Positions 2,959 to 24,309 of a DNA stretch of 64,000 nucleotides are shown piece by piece. Every line of letters starts with the position of its first letter. Position 1 is the stretch's first letter. The translations under genes and the position numbers were made by a program. Under the pieces are notes generated by a model, which was not told where the DNA came from, ran no database searches, and saw only the letters and a list, made by a program, of their open reading frames with translations. Source of the stretch: an uncultured Candidatus Saccharibacteria bacterium (GTDB lineage: Bacteria > Patescibacteriota > Minisyncoccia > Phycocordibacterales > WO2-35-19); the NCBI GenBank assembly GCA_964548205.1, contig CAZJPJ010000001.1:60086-124085 (forward strand), written 5' to 3'.

Positions 2959-2971
2959 ATCGTTTTAAAAT

Positions 2972-3000
2972 TTGACTCTAACCATACTGCGTGGTATTTT
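2972..3000 (+). promoter_or_regulatory. sigma70-like promoter: TTGACT, 17-nt spacer, TATTTT, followed by SD CTCGGAGGTG
   Basis: Read directly from the sequence. The same TTCTCGGAGGT ribosome-binding motif recurs at 3843-3853 before the next cassette. Confidence 0.45.
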
Positions 3001-3023
3001 CCTCTCGGAGGTGCAAGAAGCAC

Positions 3024-3635
3024 ATGGACGAAAACACACTTATAGGAGCCATCGTCGCTTTGATTGCTTTCGGCGCTGTTGTTGCCGTGGCTGTGGCGAT
3101 CGGGGTGAAGGGGCTAAGGGAAGAGCTTTCAAACGCAAGCTCTCAGGTATCGGACGTTGCTGATGAGACCAAGGGAGTGGCTGATATCTTAAAGGATATC
3201 GCTTACGATTCCAGACAGCGACAAATGCGGGAGACGCTCGATCGGATTGTGGTCATTTTGTCTGGAGTTGTTTTTCAAGCATATGTTACCACATCTGAAT
3301 GGGATGGGTGGGAACTCCAGGTTACCGACGTAGATAAACTTCCGTCTGTGACGTTCGGGGATCAAGGTGGTCATGTTGTGTTTTGGGTCGAGATCGTGGA
3401 CGAAAGAGAGTCCATGCATTTTCAAGTTTGTTGTGGCGAATCATTTCTCGATGATGATTTAAGAAATGAACTTTTCGGCACGGAGCCGTATCGTATCGAA
3501 TGGTACGATGAGCAGGCTCTCAAAGAGCGTGTGAGCGCGATCCTCTCTGCTTATCAAAAACAGGAGGAGAGAAATCGTCGAAACGCGGAGGTTGGGGGTG
3601 AAGATGATGGGGAGAATCCCCCAGTGAGTGATTGA
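3024..3635 (+). CDS. hypothetical membrane-anchored protein (one N-terminal TM helix), encoded in GC-rich segment A
   Basis: The ORF track gives 2991..3635, but the ATG at 3024 sits 12 nt after GGAGG. It starts MDENTLIGAIVALIAFGAVVAVAVAIGV (a TM helix). I recognised no conserved motif. GC content is clearly above the backbone. Confidence 0.5.
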   Translation: MDENTLIGAIVALIAFGAVVAVAVAIGVKGLREELSNASSQVSDVADETKGVADILKDIAYDSRQRQMRETLDRIVVILSGVVFQAYVTTSEWDGWELQVTDVDKLPSVTFGDQGGHVVFWVEIVDERESMHFQVCCGESFLDDDLRNELFGTEPYRIEWYDEQALKERVSAILSAYQKQEERNRRNAEVGGEDDGENPPVSD

Positions 3636-3651
3636 CGGTCTCTGAATTTAC

Positions 3652-3695
3652 GGCCCGCCCTGAGAGAAATCGAAGGGCGGGCCTCCATGTTTTTA
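3652..3695 (+). terminator. rho-independent terminator: GGCCCGCCC, 14-nt loop, GGGCGGGCC, then a T-run
   Basis: Perfect 9-bp GC stem at 3652-3660 and 3675-3683, followed by TCCATGTTTTTATATTTTT. Confidence 0.7.
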
Positions 3696-3790
3696 TATTT
3701 TTCCCTGAGGTAGCCGCGGCGGTGGCCGGTAATAAGCAGATCACATTCACCGACTAATTGAATTTTTCTCGGGTTTTGCTTTCTGGACAC

Positions 3791-3826
3791 AGCTCGCTCT
3801 CAAAAGGGGCGAGCTTGCTTTTTTAT
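3791..3826 (+). terminator. hairpin AGCTCGC...GCGAGCT followed by TTGCTTTTTT
   Basis: 7-bp stem plus a T-run with no CDS directly upstream. It may end a short untranslated transcript. Confidence 0.4.
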
Positions 3827-3863
3827 AAAAAAGTGGTAATTTTTTCTCGGAGGTATAGGTTCC

Positions 3864-4250
3864 ATGGATGATCATATGTTGTTGACTCAGTCGTCGATTT
3901 ATCCGGTACAGGATAGGTTGCGGCTCCTCGATCTAACCCTCATCGACTTCTTCACCAAGGAGAGGTTGAGCGAGACCAATATGCGGGTCAAAATCTATCT
4001 CAAAAAGATTGAGACTTGGATTGGTATTCTTCCTTCGAGGCTTAGAACCATGAGGGATCTTCTCAATGAATTTCCCAAAAGCGAGGTTCTCCGGAGTAAG
4101 AATGTTGGGGTGAAGACTACCGGAGCGATCTTGGGAACGATCGCCCATCACGGGCTCAGGTTTCGGTACGAGAGTCTCTCTGATCGGCCGACTGGTGCAT
4201 TCTCTTCTGACTCTTCAGATTATTGTGATGAACCAGAAAAGTGCTTCTGA
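3864..4250 (+). CDS. hypothetical protein, second gene of GC-rich segment A
   Basis: 128-aa ORF preceded by TTCTCGGAGGT 10 nt before the ATG. No recognisable family; the stretch KNVGVKTTGAILGTIAHHGL vaguely resembles a helix-hairpin-helix. Confidence 0.45.
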   Translation: MDDHMLLTQSSIYPVQDRLRLLDLTLIDFFTKERLSETNMRVKIYLKKIETWIGILPSRLRTMRDLLNEFPKSEVLRSKNVGVKTTGAILGTIAHHGLRFRYESLSDRPTGAFSSDSSDYCDEPEKCF

Positions 4251-4259
4251 GTTCCCAAT

Positions 4260-4297
4260 GGCCCGCCCGAGTAAATCTCGGGCGGGCCATCACTTTT
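4260..4297 (+). terminator. hairpin GGCCCGCCCGAG, loop taaat, CTCGGGCGGGCC
   Basis: Perfect 12-bp stem sharing the GGCCCGCCC core with the hairpin at 3652. A weak U-tract (CACTTTTGT) follows. Confidence 0.55.
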
Positions 4298-4325
4298 GTA
4301 TAGCGTATTTATTTCTATTTTCAGA

Positions 4326-4952
4326 TCAAATTTCTTTCAATACTTCGAAATCTTTTTTCAGTTGGTCAAGAGTGTGAGAGTTGTACACTGCTACAGCTGG
4401 GTGGTAGAGAGGTATTATCTTCACCTTGCTATTTTTCTGATATCCAAATTTCTCTAGCGCTTCTTTTGGAGCGTCAAAAACTTTGCCGTGCATCTTGCCT
4501 ATTGGCTCGAGTTCGAGCGAGAGCTCGAACTTTTGCATGATGTAACTACTCGCATATCTACCCAGAGCGGCGACGACTTTCGGCTGTATTATCTCTATCT
4601 GTCTGTCTAAGAATGGACCATATATTTCTATCTCTTCCAGCAGAGGGTCTCTGTTCTGAGGAGGTCGGTCTTTGACTATGTTTGTGACGTACACATCTTC
4701 TCTTTTTATACCTACAGATTCTAGAAGTTGGTCTAGTATCTGCCCTGCTCTGCCACAGAATGGCCTGCCGGTCTTTGCCTCATTTCTTCCCGGAGCCTCG
4801 CCTACAAACATGATCTTGGCATTATGGCTTCCCTCACCTATGACCGGCAGGTTTTTGCTCTCTACTCTAAATTTATAAAGCGGTGAATTCTTGAGTGCGA
4901 CTACCTCGTCTCTTATGGCTCTCATCTTTTCTTTTCTGTCTTCGGTTTTCAT
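4326..4952 (-). CDS. uracil-DNA glycosylase, family 4
   Basis: Motif GEAPGRNEAKTGRPFCGRAGQILDQLL is typical of family-4 UDG. The ORF track extends to 5105; the internal Met MKTEDRKEKMRAIRDEVVAL at 4952 gives a family-typical product of about 208 aa. Confidence 0.75.
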   Translation of the reverse strand: MKTEDRKEKMRAIRDEVVALKNSPLYKFRVESKNLPVIGEGSHNAKIMFVGEAPGRNEAKTGRPFCGRAGQILDQLLESVGIKREDVYVTNIVKDRPPQNRDPLLEEIEIYGPFLDRQIEIIQPKVVAALGRYASSYIMQKFELSLELEPIGKMHGKVFDAPKEALEKFGYQKNSKVKIIPLYHPAVAVYNSHTLDQLKKDFEVLKEI

Positions 4953-4988
4953 GATGATTTTATCGTTATATTGTGATATAATAACTTT

Positions 4989-5234
4989 ATGGCAAGAAAA
5001 TCTCAAAAAAGTAATAACCAGTTTATGATCGAGTTTGAGCGCGAAAATGATGGACGCTGGATAGCTGAAATATCTAGACTCCCTGGAGTTATGGTGTATG
5101 GTCATACTAAATCAGAAGCAAGGCAAAAAGTACACGCTCTTGCTCTCCGTGCTATCGCAGATAAAATAGAAAATAGTCGAACTACACCTATATCAATTGC
5201 TCAATTATTTACCTATGAAATGGCGGGCAATTAA
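4989..5234 (+). CDS. hicB: HicB-like antitoxin (UPF0150 family)
   Basis: FMIEFERENDGRWIAEISRLPGVMVYGHTKSEA matches the HicB/UPF0150 core pattern (Y.V..E.E.DG.Y.A..P.LPG....G.T.EEA). The start could instead be the Met at 5025. Confidence 0.6.
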   Translation: MARKSQKSNNQFMIEFERENDGRWIAEISRLPGVMVYGHTKSEARQKVHALALRAIADKIENSRTTPISIAQLFTYEMAGN

Positions 5235-5424
5235 AGCCTCATATCTTCTCAAGATATTTCTAAAATCCGGTTGGATTATAAAAAGACAAAGAGGTTCCCA
5301 TAGAATTTTAAGCAAGTTAAACTTCTCTGATTATACCTTTGCTTTTCATGATCGCGAAGAAATAGGTCCAAAAATGCTTGCACGAATATCAAAACATACG
5401 GGGTTAAAGCCAGAAGATTTATAA
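5215..5424 (+). CDS. hicA: HicA-like mRNA interferase toxin
   Basis: GWIIKRQRGSHRIL...ISKHTGL matches the HicA (YcfA) pattern G...vRq.GSHh.........IlkqaGl. It overlaps the hicB 3' end, which suggests an operon. The ORF track start is 5197. Confidence 0.65.
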   Translation: MKWRAIKASYLLKIFLKSGWIIKRQRGSHRILSKLNFSDYTFAFHDREEIGPKMLARISKHTGLKPEDL

Positions 5425-5426
5425 AG

Positions 5427-5684
5427 TTATTTCAAGGCGCCTTCCGCTTTTAGTTTTCTTATTTTCTCACTCCTTCCCCTGTTGTACTCCCCCGATACCC
5501 CATCGCTTCTTATCACCCTGTGGCAAGGAATTTGGGGATCATAATTTTTCTTCAATATACTCCCTACGGCTCTAGAAGCGTTTGGACTCCCCGCTTTCTT
5601 TGCTACTTCTTTGTATGTCATAGTTTTCCCTTTCGGGATTTTTCTCACTACTTCAAAAACTTTATCTTTAAACGATCTTGTCAT
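5427..5684 (-). CDS. MGMT-family DNA-binding domain protein (O6-alkylguanine-DNA alkyltransferase C-terminal domain only)
   Basis: 85 aa with the PCHRVI active-site motif and a helix-turn-helix stretch KTMTYKEVAKKAGSPNASRAVGSIL. It lacks the N-terminal domain of full-length Ogt. Confidence 0.65.
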   Translation of the reverse strand: MTRSFKDKVFEVVRKIPKGKTMTYKEVAKKAGSPNASRAVGSILKKNYDPQIPCHRVIRSDGVSGEYNRGRSEKIRKLKAEGALK

Positions 5685-6016
5685 GTTTTATGCTGAAGTT
5701 CGTCTATATCTTCTGATATCTCGTCCACATCTTCCTGTATCTCATCGACATCGTGCTGTATCTCGTCCACATCTTTCTGTATCTCTCCCACATCTTCCTC
5801 GACTTCTTTCAGACTTTCTGCCTGCTCGTTGACACTCATTTGGATGAAGATGGCTAGGTATATAGCTTCGAGCGAGACCACTGTAGTGAGAAAAAGTAGC
5901 ACAGTATCAAACCTGTAGCCAAAGAGAGGCAAAGCAAACATCAGCATGAAAAAAAGTGTATGAAGTATGAGAGAACTTCTAGAGCCGATCCATTTTGTAA
6001 ACTTTTTCTCGAGCAT
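5681..6016 (-). CDS. small membrane protein with a C-terminal acidic heptad repeat
   Basis: N-terminal hydrophobic segments, then EEDVGEIQKDVDEIQHDVDEIQEDVDEISEDIDELQ. The repeat is encoded by a 21-bp tandem DNA repeat. Confidence 0.5.
   Translation of the reverse strand: MLEKKFTKWIGSRSSLILHTLFFMLMFALPLFGYRFDTVLLFLTTVVSLEAIYLAIFIQMSVNEQAESLKEVEEDVGEIQKDVDEIQHDVDEIQEDVDEISEDIDELQHKT
5710..5806. repeat. tandem approximately 21-bp coding repeat (CTGTATCTCGTCCACATCTTC-like), 4-5 units
   Basis: Visible directly in the sequence. It encodes the DVDEIQ repeats of the 5681..6016 protein. Confidence 0.7.
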
Positions 6017-6020
6017 TTAT

Positions 6021-6779
6021 TTATTCTACTTTATTTCTATATTCTATATAATTGCAATACTCACACTCAGCACTTTTCTCCGGTAGTTCACTTTTATCCA
6101 ACGCATTTTTGATATCTTTTATTACTCCCTCTACCCAATCACTCTTACCGGTATGAGGTATCAGTGTCACATCAAACTCTAGTTTGCCGTCAAAGGCCTC
6201 CGCGTCTTTCTTGCCGTTTACATATACAAAATATCCTGTGTCACTCACATCAAAACTATTTTTGCGCAAGAGCCACTGGTAAATCTCCATCTGTCTTTTA
6301 TATTGGTTTTCCCATTTGGTGTCACTAAGTGCATCGAGCTTGCCTTCTTTGGCTGTAGCTTTGTAGTCTACTATCACAAGCTTGCCGTCTTTGTCTTGCC
6401 AGATGTCGTCGACTGCTCCAGAGATGGTCATACCGGTTTCTGTGTCGAAATATTCTACTCCTACAAAGTTGTCCCTCCACTTCTCCATATCTTTGTGAGC
6501 GAAGGGTATGGCCTCGACTCCATAACTTTCCATCAGTGGGTGCGATGTCTTTTGGGCTCGGTGCAGGTCGAACTCTTTTTTTAGAAGTGCGTCCACTGCT
6601 ACGTTCAAGGTGAAGGCTGGACCGCGCGGTCGAGATATCCCAAGTTTGTTGTCTATAAAAAAGCACCGAGGACACTCGACAAATAAGTCGATCTTGGAAC
6701 GAGAGAGCCGCCACTTCTTTCCACCATAATTCCAATCGCTACTGCGTGGACCAGTCCTTTTTGTATAAAAATCAGCCAT
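6021..6779 (-). CDS. PD-(D/E)xK nuclease, Cas4/RecB-like, with four Cys that could ligate an Fe-S or Zn centre
   Basis: N-terminal ECPRCFF and C-terminal CEYCNY give a CxxC...CxxC arrangement. Nuclease core GAVDDIWQDKDGKLVIVDYKATAKEG carries the D...D/ExK motifs. Its start overlaps the stop of the upstream gene at 6779. Confidence 0.65.
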   Translation of the reverse strand: MADFYTKRTGPRSSDWNYGGKKWRLSRSKIDLFVECPRCFFIDNKLGISRPRGPAFTLNVAVDALLKKEFDLHRAQKTSHPLMESYGVEAIPFAHKDMEKWRDNFVGVEYFDTETGMTISGAVDDIWQDKDGKLVIVDYKATAKEGKLDALSDTKWENQYKRQMEIYQWLLRKNSFDVSDTGYFVYVNGKKDAEAFDGKLEFDVTLIPHTGKSDWVEGVIKDIKNALDKSELPEKSAECEYCNYIEYRNKVE

Positions 6780-7612
6780 TAGTTTTGGATTAGGTTTATC
6801 TCGTTTATAACCCTCTTTATTTTGGCATCGTTGAGACCGGATTGTAGCAATATATCTTGGTTATCAAGGGCTTGGGTGCAGAGTACGACCCCGCTTTCCA
6901 TAAGCAGTTTCTTCTCTCTACCGGTGAGGCTTTGCAAACTTGTGATTGGATGCAAACCCATATCCTCTATCAGGTCCTGAAGGTTGCCTTCGCTTGGATA
7001 GTTCCAACCTATAAGTTTCATATTTCTGCACTTTGCGTACTGTATAGCTTGGGAAGAAAACTTGGTATTTGTCACGAGCCAACCCTCGTCTAGTTTTCTT
7101 GGTGAGCCAAAGTTGAACTGCTCTTTGGACAGATCGTCCCACCTAGCTTTGACGTATAGGGCCGCTTTCAAATCAGATTTTATACCGAACTGATTGTGGA
7201 ACTTGGCTTCGACCATCACGAGCTTGTTTTCATTCCATGCTACTACATCGATCTCATGGTCTACACACTGACCTTTGGCAATAAAGTCAGTCCTTACTTC
7301 AAAACCTTTTGCTCTAAAGATCTCTGAAACAAGTTGCTCGAAAGGAAAGCCAGTCGGGCCCATCTCCATAACTGCATTGCGAAGAGAATATCGTATAGCG
7401 GCTGGTTTGTGTTCTTTCTTTAGAAGTTCGAAAGCATGTTTGTAGATCTCCTTGGTGGTCATGCCCTCGCGGAGCTCGAGTTCGATGTGGGACATTATCT
7501 TTTCTATCGTGTTGTCGTTGTGTTCGACTCTACGCAAAGAGTTACGCAACTTGCTAGGTTCAAAAGGCTCTCTCTCGCCAGTGGCTTTGGTGATGAGTAT
7601 TTTGTCGTACAT
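6779..7612 (-). CDS. ATP-cone domain fused to an Mrr-like (PD-(D/E)xK) restriction endonuclease domain
   Basis: N-terminus KILITKATGEREPFEPSKLRNSLRR has an ATP-cone signature. The middle FEQLVSEIFRAKGFEV...DHEIDVVAWNENKLVMVEAK has an Mrr_cat-like nuclease core. Confidence 0.65.
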   Translation of the reverse strand: MYDKILITKATGEREPFEPSKLRNSLRRVEHNDNTIEKIMSHIELELREGMTTKEIYKHAFELLKKEHKPAAIRYSLRNAVMEMGPTGFPFEQLVSEIFRAKGFEVRTDFIAKGQCVDHEIDVVAWNENKLVMVEAKFHNQFGIKSDLKAALYVKARWDDLSKEQFNFGSPRKLDEGWLVTNTKFSSQAIQYAKCRNMKLIGWNYPSEGNLQDLIEDMGLHPITSLQSLTGREKKLLMESGVVLCTQALDNQDILLQSGLNDAKIKRVINEINLIQN

Positions 7613-7619: not shown

Positions 7620-8777
7620 TTATAGCACCTTCTCTACCACTCCTCCTCCGAGGCATCTTTCGCCAGAATAAAATACCACTGATTGACCGCTTGCGAGGTC
7701 GCTCGCCTCGCTCTCGAACACGACGGTATCACCCGACAAGGTGCAAGGTATTTTATTCTGGCGATACCTGTATCTACATTCTATCTTTTTGTTCTCAATA
7801 TCTTTATCAAGCAGATTTATTTTTTCTAGTCTCGCAGAGTAATTTCCCAAAAAAAGTCCTCGGTTCTCCTCACTTGCTTCATGCGAGCTCGGAGTGACTT
7901 TCTTTTGAAAATTACTCTGCTCGCTGACTGTGATAGTATTTTTTTTGATATCTTTGTCTACTACATACATTGGAGTGCTCTGAGTATTTTTGTTTTCAAT
8001 CCGAAATCCGTGTCTTTCTCCTAGCGTGTAAAGTATTGCTCCATCGTGATCACCTATCACTTCCCCATCAGTGTTCAAAACTTGTCCTTTCTTGGGATTC
8101 AAATAATCCTTCAAAAATTCTTTCATATCGATCTGGCCTAGGAAACATAGGCCCTGACTATCTTTGCGAGTAGCTTGGGGTAAGCCAAACTTTGCTGCTA
8201 GTTTGCGCACTTCTTCTTTTTGTAAATGACCGATAGGAAAAAGAATATGGGAGAGTTGGTTTTGTGTGAGTGTCCAGAGGAAGTATGATTGGTCTTTGTT
8301 CTTATCTTTACTTTCCCATAATTCATAATTCATACTTCGTGATTCTGCACGAAGTGCATAGTGCCCCGTAGCTACGAAGTCAGCGCCATTCTCTAGTGCC
8401 CACTTCAAAAAGTGGCCGAACTTGATAGCCTTGTTGCACATGACGTCCGGATTTGGTGTCCGACCCGCTTTGTATTCGTCGAGCATGTAGTCGACCACTT
8501 CTTGTTTGTATTCCTTCTCTAGATCGAGTGACTTAAATGGTATGTCTAAGGTTGCCGCGGCGCGCATAGCGCTACGCCTGTCTTCTCTCCACGTGCATGT
8601 GTACCCAGGAGGATTCCACGCCTTTATAAAAACTCCTGTCACGTCAAAGCCCTCTTTCTTCAAAAGTGCCGCGCTGACTGCGCTATCTACTCCGCCCGAG
8701 AGTCCGACGAAAACCTTTTTAGCTTTTAGCTTCTGGCTTTTAGCTTCTAGGGTATTGATTACGGGTTGACTTTTCAT
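7620..8777 (-). CDS. mnmA: tRNA-specific 2-thiouridylase MnmA
   Basis: PP-loop SGGVDSAVSA plus the conserved C...C catalytic region and C-terminal barrel. Full length at 385 aa. Confidence 0.9.
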   Translation of the reverse strand: MKSQPVINTLEAKSQKLKAKKVFVGLSGGVDSAVSAALLKKEGFDVTGVFIKAWNPPGYTCTWREDRRSAMRAAATLDIPFKSLDLEKEYKQEVVDYMLDEYKAGRTPNPDVMCNKAIKFGHFLKWALENGADFVATGHYALRAESRSMNYELWESKDKNKDQSYFLWTLTQNQLSHILFPIGHLQKEEVRKLAAKFGLPQATRKDSQGLCFLGQIDMKEFLKDYLNPKKGQVLNTDGEVIGDHDGAILYTLGERHGFRIENKNTQSTPMYVVDKDIKKNTITVSEQSNFQKKVTPSSHEASEENRGLFLGNYSARLEKINLLDKDIENKKIECRYRYRQNKIPCTLSGDTVVFESEASDLASGQSVVFYSGERCLGGGVVEKVL

Positions 8778-8860
8778 ATATAAGTATTATAATACACTAG
8801 GAAGCCCAAGAGGGCAAATCGATCGATTCTAAATTGAAAGCGGAGAAGGAGAAGGAAATA

Positions 8861-9226
8861 ATGGAAGTCTCAACAAGGGTTGTTTTTGTTGCAAATCATG
8901 ATGCGAATCTTGCTGCCATATCTGTGGCCAGTGAGGTCGCAAAAGTGATCGCGAAGGCCCACCTAGAAATCGGGGTAGCCCTTGGTGGTGTGGTCGTGAT
9001 TAGAACTCATGACAATTTTACTTTTGCCTTTGAGAACATGTTGGCGCGGAGTGTAAGGGTGATCGTTAATGTAGAGCTATCCCCAGGATGCTCTACCGAA
9101 ACGGTTACGATCTGGGGGTACTATTCGGAAAGGGGCGTTTCTCTGGTCTACGAGGGTGGAGACGTTGTTTGTGGTTCTGGCCCATTCACCAACGCTGTTT
9201 TCAATCTTTTCAACATCCCAGCCTAA
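8861..9226 (+). CDS. hypothetical protein in GC-rich segment B; possibly GlcG/DUF336-like
   Basis: The ORF track gives 8834..9226; the ATG at 8861 follows GGAGAAGGAGAAGG. GVALGGVVVIRTHDNFTFAFENM and GGDVVCGSGP loosely resemble DUF336 (HbpS/GlcG) motifs. This is a weak call. Confidence 0.35.
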   Translation: MEVSTRVVFVANHDANLAAISVASEVAKVIAKAHLEIGVALGGVVVIRTHDNFTFAFENMLARSVRVIVNVELSPGCSTETVTIWGYYSERGVSLVYEGGDVVCGSGPFTNAVFNLFNIPA

Positions 9227-9240
9227 CCACGACCGACACC

Positions 9241-9275
9241 AAGCGGGCCCTCCTCCGTCGGGCCCGCTTTTTGAT
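9241..9275 (+). terminator. hairpin AAGCGGGCCC, 9-nt loop, GGGCCCGCTT, then TTTT
   Basis: 10-bp stem followed by TTTTGATATT. Confidence 0.65.
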
Positions 9276-9289: not shown

Positions 9290-9387
9290 TTGACTTTTTT
9301 TTCCACCAAGTTATATTAGAGGAGAACGGTACTTTTAACACTCCTCCTAGGGGGCCACGATTCGCATCCGTGGCCCTCCATTTTTTT
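9290..9387 (+). ncRNA. candidate small RNA: promoter TTGACT, 16-nt spacer, TATATT, then about 65 nt with two hairpins and a T7 run
   Basis: After the -10 element come GAGGAG...CTCCTC (6-bp stem), then GGGGCCACG, loop attcgcatc, CGTGGCCC, then TCCATTTTTTT. There is no credible ORF. It converges on the mltG 3' end. Confidence 0.3.
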
Positions 9388-10516
9388 ATCTCAAATAATT
9401 CTCCCTATTGCTCTGATGACCGTCGAAGTTTTTGGCATAGTATGTATTGCCATATTTGTCTGACATAAAAAATAAGTATTCAGAGTTGGTCGGAGCGATA
9501 GCTGCTCGAAGAGAGTCGATCCCAGGGTTTGTGATGGCGGTGGGCGGTAGCCCTTTGTTTACATAAGTGTTGTAAGGGTGGTCTTCTCCCAAATCTTCTT
9601 TAGTCAAAGTATAAGAGTGTTTGCCGTTGTAGTAGCGGAAAGGGGCATCTACTTGTAGAGGCATATCTATCTTCATACGCTTCCATAGTATTCCAGATAT
9701 CAGTCTCTTCGATTCCAGAGTATTACCTTCTCCTTCTATTATTGAAGCCATGATGACGAGCTCTTCGAGTGGTCGCCCTGATTTCAAAATATCTTCTTCA
9801 TATGTCTTTATCTGCCGCGCAAAGTTTTCTCTCATAGCCAGTATCACATCGTCTGGTTTTGTATTCGGCATGAAGAAGTATGTATCAGGAAAAAGATATC
9901 CTTCATGGTTTCCATTTTCTACATCCCGAATAAATTCATTTGCATCAAAGGCTGGCAATGTTTCTTGAAGTAGTTTGGCAATGTCGATAGAAGAAGAACC
10001 TTCAAATATAGTCACTCTTATGGGTATGAGCCCGAATTCTCCCTTGTGTAGTGTTCTCACTACTTTGAATATCGAAACTTTGTTTGGGAAAAAATAATCC
10101 CCCGCTATCACCCTCCTCTCTCCTCCGGTTAAAAGTATGAAGAATTTTAACCAAAAACTTGATCTGACGATTTTTTGGTTTTGAAAATGATCTGCAATCT
10201 GCGACAATGTTTCACCTCGGTCTACCTCTACAAGTGCTTGGTCTGGAAAGTCTCTTGGGGCACTCCAAGAAAAGATATAGAAGCTTATGAAAAAGGATAA
10301 AATTAGTACAAAGCTCCCTATTATCCTCAGAAAGTATCTGCTTAGTAGTGGGCTGTAGCGCATTATTGATACGCGCCAGATAATGATGCGAGGGTGTATA
10401 ACTAACGCATCTCTCAGATAAGATATTTCAAATCTAATAAATTTCAAAAATTCTACTGATCTATAAAATATAAATCTGAGAAAAGTAATAATTTTTGCTA
10501 AAAAATTTCTAAGCAT
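9386..10516 (-). CDS. mltG: endolytic murein transglycosylase MltG (YceG family)
   Basis: N-terminal TM segment; YLFPDTYFF, LVIMASIIEGE and LQVDAPFRY are YceG signatures. An alternative start Met at 10363 (MRYSPLLS) would give about 325 aa. Confidence 0.8.
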   Translation of the reverse strand: MLRNFLAKIITFLRFIFYRSVEFLKFIRFEISYLRDALVIHPRIIIWRVSIMRYSPLLSRYFLRIIGSFVLILSFFISFYIFSWSAPRDFPDQALVEVDRGETLSQIADHFQNQKIVRSSFWLKFFILLTGGERRVIAGDYFFPNKVSIFKVVRTLHKGEFGLIPIRVTIFEGSSSIDIAKLLQETLPAFDANEFIRDVENGNHEGYLFPDTYFFMPNTKPDDVILAMRENFARQIKTYEEDILKSGRPLEELVIMASIIEGEGNTLESKRLISGILWKRMKIDMPLQVDAPFRYYNGKHSYTLTKEDLGEDHPYNTYVNKGLPPTAITNPGIDSLRAAIAPTNSEYLFFMSDKYGNTYYAKNFDGHQSNRENYLR

Positions 10517-12962: not shown

Positions 12963-15900
12963 TTAAGCCACTATATTTAGGAGCTTGTTTGGGACAAAGA
13001 TAACTTTTTTTATATCCCTGTCCCCTATCCACTTTTGGATTTCGGGCAGAGATAGAGCTTTTTCTTTTGCTGTACTTTCGTCGATATTTGCTTCTGCTTC
13101 GAAGCTGGCTCTAACTTTGCTGTTGACTTGTACGACGATAGTTACTTTTTCTTCTTTGATTTTATTTTCATCATACTCTGGCCACTTTTCTAAATGTATG
13201 GACGTCTTATTTCCTATGTCGGATTTATCCCGCGAAGCCTCGGCGAAGTGGGACCAAAGCTCTTCTGTGATATGAGGGGCAAAGGGGCCTAAAATTTTTA
13301 AGAATTTTTCAAAATCTTCTCTTTCAACTTGCGTCTTTCCACTTTCCAACTCATTTACATATATCATCATTGCTGATATGGCAGTATTGAATTTGTAGTT
13401 TTCTATATCCTCAGTAACTTTCTTGATAGTTTTGTGAAGCAAGGTTTCAAGTTTGGTGTTTTTTTCATCAGAGTTTATTTGTGATTTAGAGTTTGGTTCT
13501 TGTAAATTGATTCCAATTCTCCACACTCTCTCCAAAAACCTCCTAACTCCTGCTATGCCTCCAAGGTCCCAAGGGTATTGCCCCACTTCGTTGTATGGAC
13601 CTATGAAAGCAAGATAAAGTCTGACTGTATCTGCTCCTACTTTTGAAACCCATTCATCCGGATCGATGACATTGCCTTTGCTCTTACTCATCTTTTGCCC
13701 ATCTGGTCCGAGTATCAAGCCTCTGTTCATCCTGATTTTGTATGGCTCGCTTTCTTGTACCAAACCCATGTCGAAAAGGGCTTTGTGGAAAAATCTTGAA
13801 TAAAGCAAGTGCATAGTAGTATGCTCGGCTCCGCCTGAGTATCTATCTACAGGCATCCAAGATTTGATTTTGTTTTCTATTTCTCTATTTTCAAATTGTT
13901 TGGAAATCGGAGCTTGAGACTTGAGATTTTCGCGTATGCAATAAGCGAGAAAATACCAAGACGAGTCGACAAACGTATCCATAGTATCGAGTTCGGGTTT
14001 CCAACCTTTACCAAATATTTTTTCAGTTTTTTCTACCAACTCTTTCGAGCTACCAAGTGGTGAAGTCCCCTTAGGTAAAAAGTCTATATTGTCCTCTGGT
14101 AAGAGCCAAGGCAGATGCTCTTCTGGTATCGGGTGTGGCTGGCCTTCTGTATCATAGACCATAGGTATAGGGCAGCCCCAATATCTCTGTCTGCTTAGTA
14201 ACCAGTCTCTCAGTTTGTATTTGGTCACTTTTTGTCCGTACTTTTCTGCGATTTTATCTCGGGCTTGTACTGACGTCATTCTTGTAAATTCTTTGGAATC
14301 AAACAGCACCCCTTCTTCTACAAAAGCTTTTTCTTCAGAATTTAGATTTTCCAAAATCAGAGACATCTCGCTATGAGTCATGTCCTTCTGTTTTATACCT
14401 GTCAGATCTCTCCATTCCAATTCATGTATTTCTGATTCTTCGGCTGAAAGTTCGTCTTGTTCTTCGTCTGTTAGTTCAAAAAGTAAGTTTCTTGTGTGAG
14501 CGATCCTGTTTACATCCTTATGAGCGGCAAAAAATTCAGATTGTGCAATACCGAGTTTTTTTACAAATCTAAAATTTTTGTAACCGGTCTCTTCTTTTAT
14601 TTCTCTCTCAGCCGCTTCTATTTCTGTTTCGCCTTCTTCTATGCCCCCCATCACAAAGGTGACCCAAGGATGCTTTTTCCATTTCAAACACAAGTATTTG
14701 TCAGTTTTTGGATTTCTCACTACCACTATCACTGCATCCCTAAAGATAGTTTCCTTGCCTTCTCTGTGAGGGTTCCTTGGGTCGGGCATTTTTTGGATAA
14801 CCACGCTTTTTGTTGGTAAGTTGTATTTCTTTGCAAAAGTAAAATCACGCTCATCGTGGGCTGGTACGGCCATGACAGCTCCAGTGCCGTAGTTGCCTAG
14901 GACATAATCTGCTACCCATACTGGCAACTCTTCTCCTGTGGCAGGGTGGATGGCCTTGATACCCTTTAGTTCCACTCCAGTCTTTTGCTTTTTGGCATCA
15001 GTTCTTTCTATTTCTGTTTTACTTTTTGTCTCGTTTAAATAATTTTGGATTTCTTGCTTATTTGTAATTTGCGATTTGGAATTTGTGATTTCTTGTTGCA
15101 GCCATTCATTTTCTGGCGCAATCACAATATATGTAACTCCAAAGAGAGTATCGGCTCGTGTTGTGAAGACCTTGACTTCCCCCTGAAAGCTAGAAGCTAG
15201 AAGCTTAAAGCTAATTTCTGCTCCGCTACTTTTCCCTATCCAATTTCTCTGGGTGTCTTTGATCGGTTCAGGCCAGTCTAGGTTTTCCAAGTCGGAAAGA
15301 AGCCTCTCGGCATAATCAGTGATTTTGAAAAACCATTGCTCCAGATCTTTTTGGACCACTTCGCTTCCGCACCTTTCGCACTCACCACTTACCACCTGTT
15401 CGTTTGCAAGTACAGTCTGATCATTCGGGCACCAGTTGACCTTGGCTTTCTTTTTATAAACCAGACCTCTTTTATAAAACTCCAAGAAGAGCCATTGGGT
15501 CCACCGGTAATATTCTGGATCAGAAGTGACAACTTTGCGTGACCAGTCGAAGGAGTTGCCCATGCTCATGAGCTGCTTCTCCATATGAGCAATGTTTTCG
15601 TAAGTCCATTTTTTAGGATCGATGTTTCTCTTTATGGCGGCATTTTCTGCTGGTAGGCCGAACGCGTCGAAACCTATGGGGAATAAGACATTGTGCCCCT
15701 GCATCCTTTTTGCTCGTGCAAAAATATCTGGCACTGCAAAGGCGTACCAGTGGCCTATGTGCAAATTGCCGGATGGGTATGGGAATTCTACAAGAGTATA
15801 AAAATTGTCCCTACCCTTCACTTCATCAGCGACTTCGTAAAGATTGTTTTTTTTCCAGATTTCTTGCCACTTCGCTTCTATCGTTCTATGATCATAAATT

Positions 15901-15980
15901 TCTTTTGCTTGCCCGTCCGAAGCTTTAGCGGAGGCGGGCCACTTCCCCTCTATCTCTTTGTGATCATAATTTTTTTCCAT
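12963..15980 (-). CDS. leuS: leucine--tRNA ligase with an inserted NUDIX-box domain
   Basis: HIGH motif (NLHIGHWYAF), editing-domain motif TTRADTLFGVT, KMSKS motif (QKMSKSKGNVIDP), and 1005 aa in total. Residues around 395-550 carry the NUDIX box GGIEEGETEIEAAEREIKEETGY. Confidence 0.9.
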   Translation of the reverse strand: MEKNYDHKEIEGKWPASAKASDGQAKEIYDHRTIEAKWQEIWKKNNLYEVADEVKGRDNFYTLVEFPYPSGNLHIGHWYAFAVPDIFARAKRMQGHNVLFPIGFDAFGLPAENAAIKRNIDPKKWTYENIAHMEKQLMSMGNSFDWSRKVVTSDPEYYRWTQWLFLEFYKRGLVYKKKAKVNWCPNDQTVLANEQVVSGECERCGSEVVQKDLEQWFFKITDYAERLLSDLENLDWPEPIKDTQRNWIGKSSGAEISFKLLASSFQGEVKVFTTRADTLFGVTYIVIAPENEWLQQEITNSKSQITNKQEIQNYLNETKSKTEIERTDAKKQKTGVELKGIKAIHPATGEELPVWVADYVLGNYGTGAVMAVPAHDERDFTFAKKYNLPTKSVVIQKMPDPRNPHREGKETIFRDAVIVVVRNPKTDKYLCLKWKKHPWVTFVMGGIEEGETEIEAAEREIKEETGYKNFRFVKKLGIAQSEFFAAHKDVNRIAHTRNLLFELTDEEQDELSAEESEIHELEWRDLTGIKQKDMTHSEMSLILENLNSEEKAFVEEGVLFDSKEFTRMTSVQARDKIAEKYGQKVTKYKLRDWLLSRQRYWGCPIPMVYDTEGQPHPIPEEHLPWLLPEDNIDFLPKGTSPLGSSKELVEKTEKIFGKGWKPELDTMDTFVDSSWYFLAYCIRENLKSQAPISKQFENREIENKIKSWMPVDRYSGGAEHTTMHLLYSRFFHKALFDMGLVQESEPYKIRMNRGLILGPDGQKMSKSKGNVIDPDEWVSKVGADTVRLYLAFIGPYNEVGQYPWDLGGIAGVRRFLERVWRIGINLQEPNSKSQINSDEKNTKLETLLHKTIKKVTEDIENYKFNTAISAMMIYVNELESGKTQVEREDFEKFLKILGPFAPHITEELWSHFAEASRDKSDIGNKTSIHLEKWPEYDENKIKEEKVTIVVQVNSKVRASFEAEANIDESTAKEKALSLPEIQKWIGDRDIKKVIFVPNKLLNIVA

Positions 15981-16035: not shown

Positions 16036-16085
16036 ACAGAAAAAAGCCCAACGGCTCAAATACCTGTATTTGAGCCGTTGGGCTA
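16036..16085 (-). terminator. 19-bp perfect stem AGCCCAACGGCTCAAATAC, loop ctg, GTATTTGAGCCGTTGGGCT, with a T6 run on the minus strand; lies in the leuS 5' leader
   Basis: It sits 55 nt upstream of the leuS start. Further upstream, GAACGGCTCA repeats part of the 5' stem half and could form an alternative antiterminator pairing. Confidence 0.5.
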
Positions 16086-16145
16086 GAGGCTGTGAGCCGT
16101 TCGATAGACTCACGATAAACCGCTAAATTTGACTCATGATTAAGC

Positions 16146-16174
16146 AATATTGTGAAGTACGGCACAATATTGAC
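16146..16174. promoter_or_regulatory. 10-bp perfect inverted repeat CAATATTGTG, 9-nt spacer, CACAATATTG, overlapping the -35 of the NfeD operon promoter
   Basis: Read directly. It lies in the divergent region between the leuS leader and the nfeD promoter. Confidence 0.4.
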
Positions 16175-16198
16175 AAAAAACCTATATGTACTATAATT
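16171..16198 (+). promoter_or_regulatory. consensus sigma70 promoter: TTGACA, 16-nt spacer, TATAAT; SD AAGGAG 6 nt before the ATG at 16245
   Basis: Exact hexamers read from the sequence. Confidence 0.55.
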
Positions 16199-16244
16199 GT
16201 GACCAGACCTGGAAACAGGAATTGTAGTTTAACAAGGAGTAAGA

Positions 16245-16814
16245 ATGTCGAGCTTATATCAGCTTGCGAACTCAATGCATTTTGCGTGGATCGCGTTGTT
16301 CGGTACAGCAATGCTGTGTCTATCTCTCTTTTTCGGTGGTGATCATGACCACGAGGTCGATCATGGTGCCGATGGGGGCGGAGAACACGATGCTGACCAC
16401 GGCGGCGATGGAAACATGTCTATCTTGTCGTTCAAAGTGTTGTGGATGTTCATGGTTGGCTTCGGTGCTGGAGGCTACTTCGGTGCTCAAGCTAAAGCGA
16501 CTGTTCTCGGTGCTTCCATGTCCGGGCTCTTAGCGGGTCTCATAATGGGCGCGCTTGGATATGTCGCTATGAACTATCTGTACCGACACCAAGGCAACAG
16601 CGTCACGAAGACGAGTTCTGTCGTTGGGTCCACTGCTGTAGTGGACACGGCAATTTTGCCTGGCCAACTTGGTGAGGTGAAGTGCATCACTGACGGTCGC
16701 ACGGAATACTTTTCGGCACAATCAAATGTCGGGACACCGATTCCGGTGGCGTCGAGAGTTAAAGTGGTAGACTCAACGGGCAGCGTGCTCGTAGTAGAGC
16801 CATACAACAACTGA
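16245..16814 (+). CDS. NfeD-like membrane protein (short form, C-terminal OB-fold), partner of SPFH/flotillin proteins
   Basis: His/Asp-rich N-terminus and TM helices, then C-terminal GEVKCITDGRTEYFSAQSNVGTPIPVASRVKVVDSTGSVLVVEP (NfeD beta-barrel). It immediately precedes the flotillin gene. Strongly GC-rich. Confidence 0.7.
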   Translation: MSSLYQLANSMHFAWIALFGTAMLCLSLFFGGDHDHEVDHGADGGGEHDADHGGDGNMSILSFKVLWMFMVGFGAGGYFGAQAKATVLGASMSGLLAGLIMGALGYVAMNYLYRHQGNSVTKTSSVVGSTAVVDTAILPGQLGEVKCITDGRTEYFSAQSNVGTPIPVASRVKVVDSTGSVLVVEPYNN

Positions 16815-16834
16815 TCAACAAAAAGGAGAAAAAC

Positions 16835-18598
16835 ATGCAGATTACAAACGACCTCTGGTCTATCATTGCAACCCCAATCATAATCTTGCTCGTAGTGGCA
16901 GCAATCGGTGGGCTCTTACACACACTGAGCAATCGCTACGTCAAGGTTCCTCCGCAGAAGGCACTCATCGTCTATGGCGGCGGGAAAACTCGCGTTGTGT
17001 CTGGTGGTGCCAAGTTCGTAATGCCGTTCGTCGAGAACTTTTTCTTTCTCGACCTGTCGCTGTTCCAGTTCAACGTCTCATTGGAAAATGTGCCAAACAA
17101 GGACAGTGTGCCGGTCAACGTGAAGGCAAGTGTTTCGGCGAAGATTAGCAACAAGGAGGAGATGCTCCCTGTTGCGGCTGGCATTTTCGGCGAGGGCTCG
17201 CTCAAAGAGATTTCGGATAAGGTTCGCGGCATTGTCGACGGCCACGTCCGAGCACTCATCGGCCAGTCCGACATGGAAACCATCCTGCGTGACCAGGATA
17301 CCTTCAAGCAGCAGATCAGCAACCTCGTTTCAACCGAGATGGCTAAAATCGGCTGCGAGATTATCGTCCTGAACATTCAGGAAGTCAGCGATCCTCACGG
17401 GGTCATCGAATCTTTGGGCAAACCGAAGATCGCTGAGGTGAAAGCCGAAGCGGCCATTCGAGAAGCCGAGCAGACTCGACGCCAGACCATCGATACCACC
17501 AACGCTCAGCGCGAAGCTGAGAAGGTGGCTGCTGCCAACAAGGCGCAGATCGCCGAGGCCCAGCGTGATCTAAACACCAAGCAGGCCGGTTACGACGCGG
17601 AAGTGGCCAGGCAGCGAGCAATCGCTGCTCAAGCTGGTCCGCTCGCCGAAGCCGAAGCCCGCAGGGGTGTGGTTGTGGCGGAGGTGGCGGTCGAAGAGGC
17701 TGACACCGAGGCTCGGACCAAACTGCAAGGCAAGGTCAAGGAGCTGAAGAAAGCCGAACTCGACGCTAACCTCATAACCGAGGCTAATGCCAAGGCGGAA
17801 CAATCCGTCATTGTGGCGGAGGGTGCTAAGAAAGCGGCGGTTATCACCGCAGAAGCGGCACGCACCAAACTCACCATCGAGGCTGAAGCTGCGGCGTCTG
17901 CTCGCGAAAAGAAGGCCGAGGGTGATCGTAAGGCTCTCGAACTCGAGGGTCAGGGCGAAGCGGCTAAGGCCAAGCTGGTCGGCGAAGCTGCGGCGGAAGT
18001 CGCTCGCAAAACCGGTGAAGGCGAAGCGGCGGCGAAGAAGGCGAACCTTCTAGCTGAAGCTGAAGGTCGTGAAGCCAATGCCAAAGCGACGCAAGCTCAA
18101 CTTTTGGCTGAAGCCGAAGGTCAGAAGGCCAAGGCAGCTGCAACCAAGGAAGAATTGCTTGCACGCGCGGCTGGTACGGAAGCCGAACTGCTTGCTCAGG
18201 CAATGGGTGTGGCTAAAATGTTGGAAAACTTCCAAGATCTCACTCCGGAGCAGATGAGAATGCTCCAGACCAAGTGGGTTCTGGAAATCCTTCCTTCAGC
18301 CATCGAGAAACTCGGTGGTGCCGGCGAAAAGATCATGGCTGAAGTAGCTAAGCCAATTGCGGCAGCTCTTGGGTCCATCGATAACATCACTGTGTACGAT
18401 TCTGGCTCCGGTACCAATGGTGCTGGTGGCCTAGAACGCTACGCGAAGATCGCTCCGCAGGCACTCATGCAGGCCTTCATGTCATTGAAGGAAACTGGCA
18501 TGTTGCCGATGGTCGCGACGGCTTTGAAGAAGGCTGGTGTGGATGTGTCCTCTCTTATGCCAATGGGCACTGAAGACGACACGGCCAAGCTGTCGTAG
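16835..18598 (+). CDS. floT: flotillin-like SPFH (band 7) protein (FloT/YuaG-like)
   Basis: N-terminal TM, SPFH domain (KALIVYGGGKTRVVSGG...ILRDQDTFKQQISNLV), then a long Ala/Glu-rich coiled-coil (EA repeats) and a C-terminal flotillin tail. About 60% GC by eye against an AT-rich backbone. Confidence 0.85.
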   Translation: MQITNDLWSIIATPIIILLVVAAIGGLLHTLSNRYVKVPPQKALIVYGGGKTRVVSGGAKFVMPFVENFFFLDLSLFQFNVSLENVPNKDSVPVNVKASVSAKISNKEEMLPVAAGIFGEGSLKEISDKVRGIVDGHVRALIGQSDMETILRDQDTFKQQISNLVSTEMAKIGCEIIVLNIQEVSDPHGVIESLGKPKIAEVKAEAAIREAEQTRRQTIDTTNAQREAEKVAAANKAQIAEAQRDLNTKQAGYDAEVARQRAIAAQAGPLAEAEARRGVVVAEVAVEEADTEARTKLQGKVKELKKAELDANLITEANAKAEQSVIVAEGAKKAAVITAEAARTKLTIEAEAAASAREKKAEGDRKALELEGQGEAAKAKLVGEAAAEVARKTGEGEAAAKKANLLAEAEGREANAKATQAQLLAEAEGQKAKAAATKEELLARAAGTEAELLAQAMGVAKMLENFQDLTPEQMRMLQTKWVLEILPSAIEKLGGAGEKIMAEVAKPIAAALGSIDNITVYDSGSGTNGAGGLERYAKIAPQALMQAFMSLKETGMLPMVATALKKAGVDVSSLMPMGTEDDTAKLS

Positions 18599-18600
18599 AC

Positions 18601-18640
18601 ATGTAGGGCCGAGCAAGCAGCTCGGCCCTACATTTTAAGG
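18601..18640 (+). terminator. hairpin ATGTAGGGCCGAGC, loop aagca, GCTCGGCCCTACAT, then TTTAAGG
   Basis: 14-bp perfect stem immediately after the floT stop. Confidence 0.6.
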
Positions 18641-18653
18641 AGAAAGGAAAAAG

Positions 18654-19109
18654 ATGAGAACTTATACTTCAAGTAGTGTCTGGAACGACAAACGGCCAAG
18701 TGCCTTAGTTGTATACTGTAGCGATGGAAGGTTCCATCAACACATCCAAGAATTTGTTGACATGGGGCTCGGTATACCTGAGAGCGATCTCTTGGCTATC
18801 CCTGGTGGGCCGCATGCGCTACAACATGTCTCTGCTTATCCTAAGGCACGGTGGGCAAGCAAGTTTTTTCTTGAGTTCTTAGCCAAGCATCACCAGATTT
18901 CTCGGATTGTTCTAATCGGGCACGAGGGGTGCGCGTGGTATCGATCGGTGGTTTTTCAGGAGGTCGAGCTCAATGTGCTTAGAGATCGACAAAGTAAAGA
19001 TCTGAAGAACGTGCTGGGTCTAGTGAAGGAGACGCACCCAGGAGCCACAGTCGAGTTGTACTTCGCTAGACCAAAAGGAGATTCGGTGGAGTTCACTTTG
19101 ATTAAGTAG
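18654..19109 (+). CDS. hypothetical protein with beta-carbonic-anhydrase-like Cys/Asp/His motifs
   Basis: VVYCSDGRF and LIGHEGCAW resemble the beta-CA zinc-site motifs C(S)D(S)R and HxxC. The product is only 151 aa, so the assignment is tentative. GC-rich. Confidence 0.35.
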   Translation: MRTYTSSSVWNDKRPSALVVYCSDGRFHQHIQEFVDMGLGIPESDLLAIPGGPHALQHVSAYPKARWASKFFLEFLAKHHQISRIVLIGHEGCAWYRSVVFQEVELNVLRDRQSKDLKNVLGLVKETHPGATVELYFARPKGDSVEFTLIK

Positions 19110-19128
19110 CGACTTCTTACCCCATGGT

Positions 19129-19170
19129 CCGGCGTTTCCCTAGGGGGAGCGCCGGGCTATTTCTTTTGAC
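19129..19170 (+). terminator. hairpin CCGGCG, 15-nt loop, CGCCGG, then CTATTTCTTTT
   Basis: Read directly after the stop of the 18654..19109 ORF. Confidence 0.5.
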
Positions 19171-19221
19171 AATTTTTAGTTTTTACTTGCCCCCTGCTTT
19201 GTATGGGGGTATATTTTTTAT

Positions 19222-19990: not shown

Positions 19991-20018
19991 GAGGATTATT
20001 TATTTTACTCCTTCACTG

Positions 20019-24297: not shown

Positions 24298-24309
24298 ACC
24301 TCCCACAAC

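Follow-up and report, generated by a model that had tools for sequence, protein, structure and literature searches.

GC-rich accessory genes at scattered intergenic sites of a small Patescibacteria genome and their probable horizontal acquisition

Candidate Phyla Radiation (CPR; Patescibacteria) bacteria have tiny genomes, and for most of them a life in attachment to other cells is presumed; the genes they acquire, and the sources of these genes, are among the few hints that a genome gives of such partners. The stretch analysed here, hereafter the window, comprises 64,000 nucleotides (nt) of contig CAZJPJ010000001.1 of an uncultured Candidatus Saccharibacteria bacterium. Judged by gene content and gene order, its backbone is that of a small, ~40% GC Patescibacteria genome (Paceibacteria/Zambryskibacteria-like), with housekeeping genes strongly syntenic with those of relatives. 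Short GC-rich segments are set into this backbone, and we consider them to be, most probably, accessory genes derived from several independent horizontal transfers from higher-GC genomes into separate intergenic sites.

The backbone genes encode AlaRS, an M16 peptidase, uracil-DNA glycosylase (UDG), MnmA, YceG, a sigma factor, leucyl-tRNA synthetase (LeuRS), YchF, the F-type ATP synthase operon, a G6PD-6PGD fusion and BipA, among others. LeuRS relatives among 185,579 species genomes are all from Patescibacteria metagenome-assembled genomes, the closest being 72-74% identical, and the gene order of the LeuRS region is kept in a dozen of them. Homologous loci from other genomes with which the window was compared are designated by L-numbers (L001, L083 and so forth). 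For the part of the window beyond 26 kb, a synteny search based on the G6PD-6PGD fusion (31-54 kb; JGI metagenomes) returned relatives that are at most 55% identical and not collinear.

Base composition and layout of the GC-rich units

The window as a whole has 42.1% GC. Nine segments named in a preliminary description of the sequence have 53.1% GC when pooled (8,140 nt, 12.7% of the window), against 40.5% for the remainder, and a 400-nt sliding GC profile displays discrete peaks at the same sites. Each segment was compared with all same-length background windows avoiding every listed segment:

2960-4300: 48.3% GC, z 3.3
8830-9275: 49.6% GC, z 2.6
16140-19170: 53.2% GC, z 7.8
23585-24350: 58.0% GC, z 6.1
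37830-38060: 51.9% GC, z 2.6
39030-39960: 57.3% GC, z 6.3
46480-46860: 50.9% GC, z 2.8
53410-53645: 58.1% GC, z 4.0
58600-58945: 52.0% GC, z 3.0

For all nine, the observed GC is reached by at most 0.3% of the background windows. A two-state hidden Markov model (HMM) that was not given these coordinates recovered 3001-3729, 16284-19157, 23619-24339, 37723-38119, 39025-39921 and 53426-53609, and added a tenth segment (62046-62542) missing from the earlier list; on shuffled sequence it called zero segments. The second gene of the first segment (gene B, 3864-4250, 47% GC) is too weak for an HMM call. The leave-one-out codon-usage log-likelihood ratio is negative in 13/13 candidate genes and positive in 60/60 backbone genes, with the ratios of gene C (segment 8830-9275) and Zn1 (segment 37830-38060) coming from the wrong frame and only their GC content at third codon positions (GC3) redone in frame. 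GC3 ranges from 0.48 to 0.68 in the candidates, as against 0.41 ± 0.05 in the 60 backbone genes. Furthermore, the relative synonymous codon usage of the flotillin operon described below correlates with that of 64% and 58% GC genomes (r 0.57/0.56), as does that of the pooled ORFan genes (r 0.41/0.31), and that of the inserted genes has no such relation to the window's own backbone (r -0.09). The preliminary description of GC-rich segments in an AT-rich backbone is thereby borne out; it had named as its refutation the finding of no GC or codon-usage discontinuity, and a discontinuity is present in GC, GC3 and the codon log-likelihood ratio alike. Structured RNAs were ruled out as the source of the GC peaks: neither tRNA genes nor Rfam families at gathering score were detected in the 64 kb, and each segment has a long open reading frame (ORF) preceded by a Shine-Dalgarno (SD) sequence.

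Most units combine a sigma-70-type promoter, a GGAGG-type SD and a GC-rich hairpin with a T-run. The promoters match the consensus at 12/12 positions at 16170, 11/12 at 8766 and 9-10/12 in others; both examples singled out earlier are found, TTGACA-16-TATAAT at 16170-16197 and TTGCAT-17-TATAAT at 53641-53613 on the minus strand. The claim that every segment carries a near-consensus promoter holds for most units, the exceptions being gene B and 37839-38054 (minus strand), where the promoter is weak or unclear. Similarly, a common architecture of all three elements is present in most units, but it is not distinctive, as backbone genes have it too. Perfect consensus promoters serve backbone genes at 24960 (before the ATP synthase operon) and at 38600, and perfect or near-perfect GC-rich hairpins of 13-19 bp terminate backbone genes at 22654-22685, 32689-32721, 16045-16084 and 59004-59048. 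This layout is the genome's normal monocistronic unit, and the self-contained look of the units comes simply from their being monocistronic inserts among closely packed operons. They do occupy separate sites rather than one island, each segment returning to collinear backbone within an intergenic spacer.

Insertion sites and gene content of the units

The first unit consists of two genes, A and B:

2972-3000, plus strand: gene A promoter, TTGACT-17-TATTTT with TG extension, 9/12 match, starting 14 nt past the M16 peptidase stop codon
3024-3635, plus strand: gene A, 203 aa, 49% GC, SD GGAGGT
3652-3686, plus strand: gene A terminator, stem GGCCCGCCC/GGGCGGGCC, then a T-run
3864-4250, plus strand: gene B, 128 aa, predicted helical, GC3 0.57
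4258-4290, plus strand: gene B terminator, 14-bp perfect stem with the GGCCCGCCC core of the gene A terminator, ending 36 nt short of the UDG stop codon

The convergent M16-peptidase and UDG genes are only 3-10 nt apart in L027, L031 and L025; in the window 1,367 bp separate them, filled by genes A and B. Compared in this way, 2960-4300 is an insertion relative to these three loci. Gene A is predicted to encode a protein with a transmembrane helix at its N-terminus, a further, long helix and a small region of alpha/beta type. In a filter-free full HMMER search of 1.84 billion representatives it matches itself alone, as does the gene B product among 5.8 billion clustered proteins. Neither has a match in Pfam, NCBIfam, PHROG, PADLOC or the PDB sequences, nor, at the DNA level, in GenBank phages or PLSDB plasmids; in IMG/VR, gene A has no match and gene B just two 26-residue matches at chance level. 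The AlphaFold2 models (pLDDT 49 for gene A and 42 for gene B) are too poor for fold comparison.

The two proteins are unrelated to each other in sequence. Genes A and B have paralogous 5′ regions (that of gene B being GTGGTAATTTTTTCTCGGAGGT), the common stretch from -10 to SD (GTGGTAwTTTyyTCTCGGAGGT) agreeing at 20/24 nt, including TCTCGGAGGT, and among the units only these adjacent genes have both 5′ and 3′ control sequences in common. As the control sequences are common and the proteins unrelated, genes A and B probably came in as a pair, or else owe their control regions to a duplication of one set.

The largest insertion is located between the DUF5671 and LeuRS genes, and contains an operon encoding a flotillin:

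16045-16084, minus strand: ancestral LeuRS-side terminator, 19-bp perfect stem, upstream of the LeuRS promoter, at the left edge of the 3.9-kb insertion
16170-16197, plus strand: flotillin operon promoter, TTGACA-16-TATAAT, 12/12
16245-16814, plus strand: NfeD-like membrane protein, 189 aa, GC3 0.56
16835-18598, plus strand: flotillin (SPFH/Band_7), 587 aa, 56% GC, GC3 0.63 (Pfam Band_7; Bitscore: 100.4, cut-off 23.6; e-value: 1.6e-28)
18654-19109, plus strand: Pro_CA_2-like protein, 151 aa, the operon's third gene, 31-35% identical to counterparts elsewhere
19124-19160, plus strand: flotillin operon terminator, 17 pairs
19222-19758, plus strand: helix-turn-helix (HTH; DeoR/wHTH-like) gene of backbone-like composition, within the same inserted block

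In L028, L031, L025, L003 and L019 the DUF5671 gene is found 56-117 nt upstream of LeuRS, as opposed to 4 kb in the window. The terminator at 16045-16084 has the position of the L028 terminator, and the conserved LeuRS -10 (TGTATATTTTG) is still recognisable at 15990; with both in place, the insertion spans ~16085-20018. Unrelated inserts of 0.25-0.57 kb occupy this spacer in L034, L022 and L002, and the site is therefore a recurrent hotspot. That of L034 (9754-10001) is a 250-nt GC-rich structured stretch and that of L002 (7457-8030) a GC-rich 127-aa ORF; the translation of the L022 ORF (9563-10001), read by eye, appears to resemble a DUF559/Vsr-type endonuclease.

The Band_7 gene is directly preceded by a gene for a small NfeD-like membrane protein, as is characteristic of NfeD-flotillin (SPFH2) operons. 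The NfeD-like protein scores 26.1 bits against Pfam NfeD, just under the cut-off of 29.1, and is 54-66% identical to the flotillin-upstream partner in eight loci (L081-L086, L169 and L171). The flotillin homologues form a tight family (64-78% identity) in varied genomic contexts:

L083: flotillin 69% identical, contig 45% GC; CPR relative, same LeuRS-DUF5671 site, little GC excess
L085/L086: 74%, contig 46% GC; beside PheT
L171: 68%, contig 39% GC; other neighbours, the operon (4018-6951) being a 52-61% GC island
L169: 74%, contig 58.5% GC; adjoining a DDE transposase fragment and a GH43 gene
L084: 71%, contig 58% GC; complex I and RNase J context
L081/L082: 67%, contig 64% GC and up to 6.2 Mb; operon compositionally native, followed by exosortase EpsH and EpsI

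Plasmid flotillins from many phyla are ~30% identical to the window's copy. Against this baseline, the 67-74% identity across CPR-type and large high-GC genomes indicates lateral spread, and the operon clearly moves among genomes of these two kinds. By neighbour joining, the flotillin of the window groups with P0002, P0003 and P0004, and the syntenic L083 copy with L084; such phylogenetic conflict was found for the flotillin operon only.

Several further observations concern this region. A 22-nt motif (CCCCTGCTTTGTWTKGRGKTAT; 0 copies expected) is present at 19191-19212, just 3′ of the flotillin operon terminator, and at 23554-23575, just 5′ of the promoter of the PEP1 unit described below. 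The AT-rich HTH gene contains, in frame, a perfect 12-bp GC palindrome (19464-19490; GCCCGCCCCGCC aag GGCGGGGCGGGC), which recalls palindromic elements inserting into coding regions; its core is that of the gene A and B terminators, giving 3 copies in total where 0 are expected. Besides the acquired flotillin operon, the window has a separate, native stomatin-like SPFH/Band_7 gene of backbone composition (57826-58566, minus strand, 44% GC). LeuRS itself (12963-15980, minus strand) has a NUDIX domain (Pfam; e-value: 7e-16) inserted after the editing domain, at residues 413-534. Judging by tblastn match lengths, this long form (~960-1005 aa) is suggested to occur in L001, L002, L022, L034 and L083, and a short form (~800 aa) without NUDIX in L025, L027, L028 and L031; a literature search on LeuRS-NUDIX fusions turned up no paper. 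The L083 LeuRS is only 48% identical to that of the window, as compared with 61-78% for the neighbouring genes, and this divergence suggests a xenologous replacement.

Two units encode PEP-CTERM proteins:

23589-24339, plus strand: PEP1 unit; promoter TTGACA-17-TAGTAT 23589-23617, GC-rich 5′ untranslated region hairpin, coding sequence (CDS) 23683/23698-24297 (60% GC, GC3 0.68), terminator 24310-24339
39019-39955, minus strand: PEP2 unit; promoter TTGACA-17-TAGGTT 39955-39927, CDS 39855-39121 (244 aa, 59% GC, ORFan), terminator 39078-39019

Both score above the PEP-CTERM cut-offs of TIGR02595 (16 bits) and PF07589 (20.7 bits), PEP1 with Bitscores of 26.9 and 29.0 and PEP2 with 20.1 and 28.7, respectively. 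PEP1 furthermore has a sub-threshold match to floc_PepA, the flocculation protein PepA (Bitscore: 40.6; cut-off 80), and no match in IMG/VR. PEP2 has no homologue among 5.8 billion clustered proteins. No exosortase is encoded in the 64-kb window, neither PEP-CTERM proteins nor exosortases occur in any other fetched CPR locus, and a literature search returned no paper linking either to Patescibacteria genomes.

The single-gene unit at the MnmA-YceG site differs from the other insertions:

8766-9272, plus strand: gene C unit; promoter TTGACT-16-TATAAT 8766-8793, CDS 8861-9226 (121 aa), terminator 9245-9272

This site is empty in L031, L025 and L022; in L083, L027, L001, L034 and L028 a same-strand ORF, 107-130 aa long, occupies it. 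Similarity among these ORFs is weak, and they have a C-terminal P..F..(V/I)F motif in common with gene C. The in-frame GC3 of gene C is not an outlier (0.48, z 1.6), and its GC excess therefore stems mostly from amino-acid composition. Recent import of 8830-9275 was rejected because five relatives carry ORFs of matching length and strand there, weakly related in sequence; gene C belongs to an older, fast-evolving positional family, resident at a variable intergenic site. Immediately downstream (9290-9395, plus strand), a TTGACT-16-TATATT promoter precedes ~70 nt that contain two hairpins and a T-run and lack an ORF. This stretch is a candidate leader or small RNA and would share a bidirectional terminator with yceG.

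The remaining units are smaller and lie further along the window:

37714-38054, minus strand: Zn1 unit; CDS 38054-37839, a 71-aa Cys/His zinc-ribbon-like protein, GC3 0.60; terminator 37766-37714
46431-46856, plus strand: gene D unit; promoter TTGCAA-17-TATAAT with TG 46431-46459, CDS 46512-46802 (96 aa, GC3 0.60), terminator 46806-46856
53371-53641, minus strand: gene E unit; promoter TTGCAT-17-TATAAT 53641-53613, CDS 53595-53371 (74 aa, 57% GC, transmembrane helix and Pro-rich tail), terminator 53455-53424
58616-59003, minus strand: Zn2 unit; promoter TTGACT-16-TATCTT 59003-58976, CDS 58942-58655 (95-aa zinc-ribbon protein), terminator 58636-58616 with 9 G-C pairs
62118-62542, minus strand: gene F unit, absent from the earlier list; CDS 62515-62168 (115-aa membrane protein, 53% GC, GC3 0.54), terminator ~62150-62118

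The products of genes D, E and F are small membrane or other proteins without family assignment. Inverted repeats of 34 nt (37642-37675 and 38945-38978; 88% complementary) bracket a 1.3-kb block with Zn1, a MazF/PemK-like gene (38175-38513) and an ORF (38623-38991), which may constitute a small mobile or regulatory module; the right arm (38940-39004) comprises three ~24-nt tandem units. Within the block, a perfect 21-nt direct repeat (GTCAAAGGCCCCTGGGGATAA) is found at 38154-38174 and 38596-38616; read on the minus strand, it is a CCCCAGGGG palindrome with a TTGAC -35 element after it. Of the two copies, the second is part of a 12/12 consensus promoter (38600-38572, minus strand), which would drive a ~90-nt transcript to a bidirectional terminator at 38480-38524, a candidate small RNA beside the MazF-like gene.

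In the region 63380-64000, a gene fragment (63578-64000, minus strand) runs off the right end of the window. It carries a putative motif of RAYT/IS200-like Y1 transposases (GHLYQGRYKS...RYVERNA), an assignment that is unconfirmed by Pfam, where there is no match. Its 3′ end occurs twice in tandem (63473-63654; perfect copies of 91 nt each), and before this duplication lie four copies of a ~30-nt unit (GGAAATGGGGTCAGCCACCTTTTTTCG). Elsewhere in the backbone, a single 803-aa protein (41371-43782, minus strand) fuses glucose-6-phosphate dehydrogenase (G6PD_N, G6PD_C) with 6-phosphogluconate dehydrogenase (NAD_binding_2, 6PGD) and has at least 589 relatives in JGI metagenomes, and a DUF1003-family gene (5681-6016, minus strand) includes four 21-nt tandem coding repeats at 5691-5799.

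Origin of the GC-rich genes

Repeated acquisition of foreign genes had been among the explanations put forward at the outset. Synteny, the flotillin homologues and codon usage speak for it; one high-GC lineage as the source, raised there as a point to check, could not be demonstrated, three of the cargo proteins being ORFans. Absence from the orthologous site, a hallmark of horizontal acquisition, was found for 2960-4300 (in L025, L027 and L031) and for 16085-20018 (in L003, L019, L025, L028 and L031), and not for gene C. Deviant composition, a second hallmark, is present throughout, in gene C only marginally. The DNA, environmental or from a host, would probably have been taken up and integrated into intergenic spacers by illegitimate or flank-homologous recombination, and only insertions sparing the compact operons would have survived. 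Each insertion would then form a transcription unit of its own, with an AT-rich sigma-70-type promoter at the 5′ edge and, for insulation, a GC-rich intrinsic terminator, both presumably being the genome's ordinary signals. In kind, the predicted cargo would relate to the cell envelope or surface, with a flotillin membrane scaffold, two secreted PEP-CTERM proteins, three small membrane or other proteins and two zinc-ribbon proteins.

Several points weigh against acquisition by transfer as proposed here. The foreign origin of A, B and PEP2, which have no homologues, is argued from composition, with synteny in addition for A and B. Transfer would have run from high-GC genomes to CPR, a direction read from composition and not from a rooted, taxon-labelled tree. 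Near-identical donor DNA was not found, the flotillin operon sharing 66-68% nucleotide identity with every homologue. Moreover, in L083 the operon occupies the same site without a clear excess of GC, and its proteins there are 60-69% identical to those of the window, similar to the core proteins of the two genomes (48-78%). At such core identity, synonymous sites are expected to be saturated, and the operon's GC3 of 0.56-0.63 is therefore not a remnant of one ancient shared insertion. A single recent insertion is likewise insufficient, and we infer that the window's operon was replaced (allelic) or re-acquired at the same hotspot later.

An unlikely alternative is that these are native lineage-specific genes whose GC content is intrinsic, arising from Gly/Ala/Pro/Arg-rich proteins, selection on mRNA structure or rapid evolution. 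The positional family of gene C, present in six related genomes, is GC-richer than the backbone in most of them, the GC3 of gene C is near the backbone value, other relatives also carry small genes of raised GC, several cargo proteins are rich in Gly, Ala, Arg and Pro (0.28-0.38), and ORFan status suits fast-evolving native genes. However, most candidates have a GC3, a measure that depends little on amino-acid content, of 0.54-0.68, against 0.41 in the backbone and only 0.35-0.40 in the native, highly expressed ATP synthase alpha and beta genes. Several relatives furthermore lack genes A and B and the flotillin operon at the same sites, and the operon is demonstrably common to unrelated high-GC genomes.

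A narrower proposal, which we regard as improbable, is that the GC-rich genes record gene flow from the host of an epibiont, a matrix- or floc-forming, exosortase-bearing Gram-negative of ~58-65% GC. It is raised because the L081 operon adjoins EpsH-EpsI (6.2 Mb, 64% GC), the window has two PEP-CTERM proteins without a visible exosortase, and PEP1 weakly resembles PepA. The combination is unexpected, namely two high-GC PEP-CTERM proteins with no exosortase in the window, together with a flotillin operon that has an exosortase-adjacent high-GC homologue, and it at most hints at an exosortase-bearing partner organism. Were the proposal true, the epibiont would display host-type surface proteins, embedding itself in or mimicking the host matrix, and compositional islands could serve in predicting which hosts uncultured CPR bacteria have.

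A single mobile cassette family (integron-like, or units of the repetitive extragenic palindromic (REP)/RAYT or miniature inverted-repeat transposable element type) placed by a dedicated recombinase, which had also been suggested, is very unlikely. In its favour, the adjacent genes A and B combine a common -10-to-SD stretch and terminator stem with unrelated ORFs, the HTH gene next to the flotillin operon has a third, in-frame copy of their palindrome, the 22-nt motif at 19191 and 23554 adjoins two segments, and the fragment at 63578-64000 carries the putative RAYT/IS200-like motif (no match in Pfam). Nevertheless, the eleven units have no border repeat, attC-like site or target duplication in common, their cargo proteins are mutually unrelated, eleven other strong hairpins all differ in sequence, and the units are scattered with promoters of their own, unlike arrayed integron cassettes. 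No integrase or transposase adjoins any segment, and the window contains no integrase and no array of attC sites with intI. Common border motifs, cargo paralogy and a REP family were thus each rejected, with the A/B pair and the three GCCCGCCC...GGGCGGGC palindromes, just three copies, as the exceptions.

An artefact, be it a chimeric metagenome assembly, an engineered construct or a bin contaminated by some co-occurring organism of high GC, is the least probable of the earlier suggestions: the source is a metagenome-assembled contig of 163,621 bp, for which compositional islands are a classic warning sign, but a chimeric join has a single breakpoint without return to the same locus, whereas ten segments of 0.2-3 kb have collinear backbone on both sides, end in intergenic spacers and leave their neighbours undamaged, the flotillin operon lies between the same two genes in L083 and forms the same kind of island in the independent assembly L171, the AT-rich promoters fit the host's own promoter type, and the proteins are recorded in both NCBI and Logan.

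With horizontal acquisition as the favoured explanation, the window would be a clean example of its kind, ~13% of an otherwise strictly syntenic stretch being imported, envelope-related and separately expressed, with insertion sites resolved by synteny. Its value is in annotation, the segments being neither contamination nor a cassette element, and as a lead for host prediction.

Comparison with known systems

Integron cassettes are promoterless, end in attC, are arrayed next to intI and are expressed from Pc. The units of the window resemble them in being short, mostly single genes with unrelated cargo and a GC-rich structured 3′ element, but are scattered, with their own promoter and a plain intrinsic terminator (perfect stem and T-run), and without intI. 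GC-rich palindromes 3′ of genes in an AT-richer genome, together with a possible RAYT-like fragment at the right end, are similarly reminiscent of REP/RAYT elements; here, however, only three palindromes have a common sequence, and the RAYT assignment is a tentative one to which Pfam gives no match.

The PEP-CTERM/exosortase protein-sorting system was reportedly described by Haft et al. in 2006, from Gram-negative, exopolysaccharide-producing bacteria that encode exosortase. PEP1 and PEP2 share with proteins of this system (TIGR02595) an N-terminal signal-like hydrophobic segment and a C-terminal VPEP motif, hydrophobic helix and Arg cluster, but differ in that the window and the fetched CPR loci are without exosortase.

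The NfeD-SPFH pair is co-inherited and often laterally transferred together (Hinderhofer et al. 2009; PMC2636767). As in the NfeD2-SPFH2 operons (YuaF-YuaG and YqiJ-YqiK; PMC2636767), an NfeD-like gene in the window is directly upstream of a Band_7 flotillin gene. The window's operon is distinguished from these by a conserved third gene (Pro_CA_2-like) and by its membership of a tight clade (64-78% identity) across CPR-like and 58-64% GC genomes.

Individually transferred genes and islands occupy, at the maximum, 13% of the length of Patescibacteria genomes (Gios et al., mSystems 2025; PMC12455944), the donors being other Patescibacteria and unrelated phyla and most transfers not being recent (PMC12455944). 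No mention of flotillin or PEP-CTERM was found in the text of that paper. The window differs from the cases reported there in that its acquisitions are mostly single small ORFan genes with their own promoter and terminator, are uniformly GC-richer and include PEP-CTERM proteins. It is nonetheless a new instance of a known phenomenon in Patescibacteria, involving no new element or mechanism: like the genomes of PMC12455944 it carries scattered acquired genes, and the 12.7% of its sequence in deviant segments fits the figure of up to 13%.

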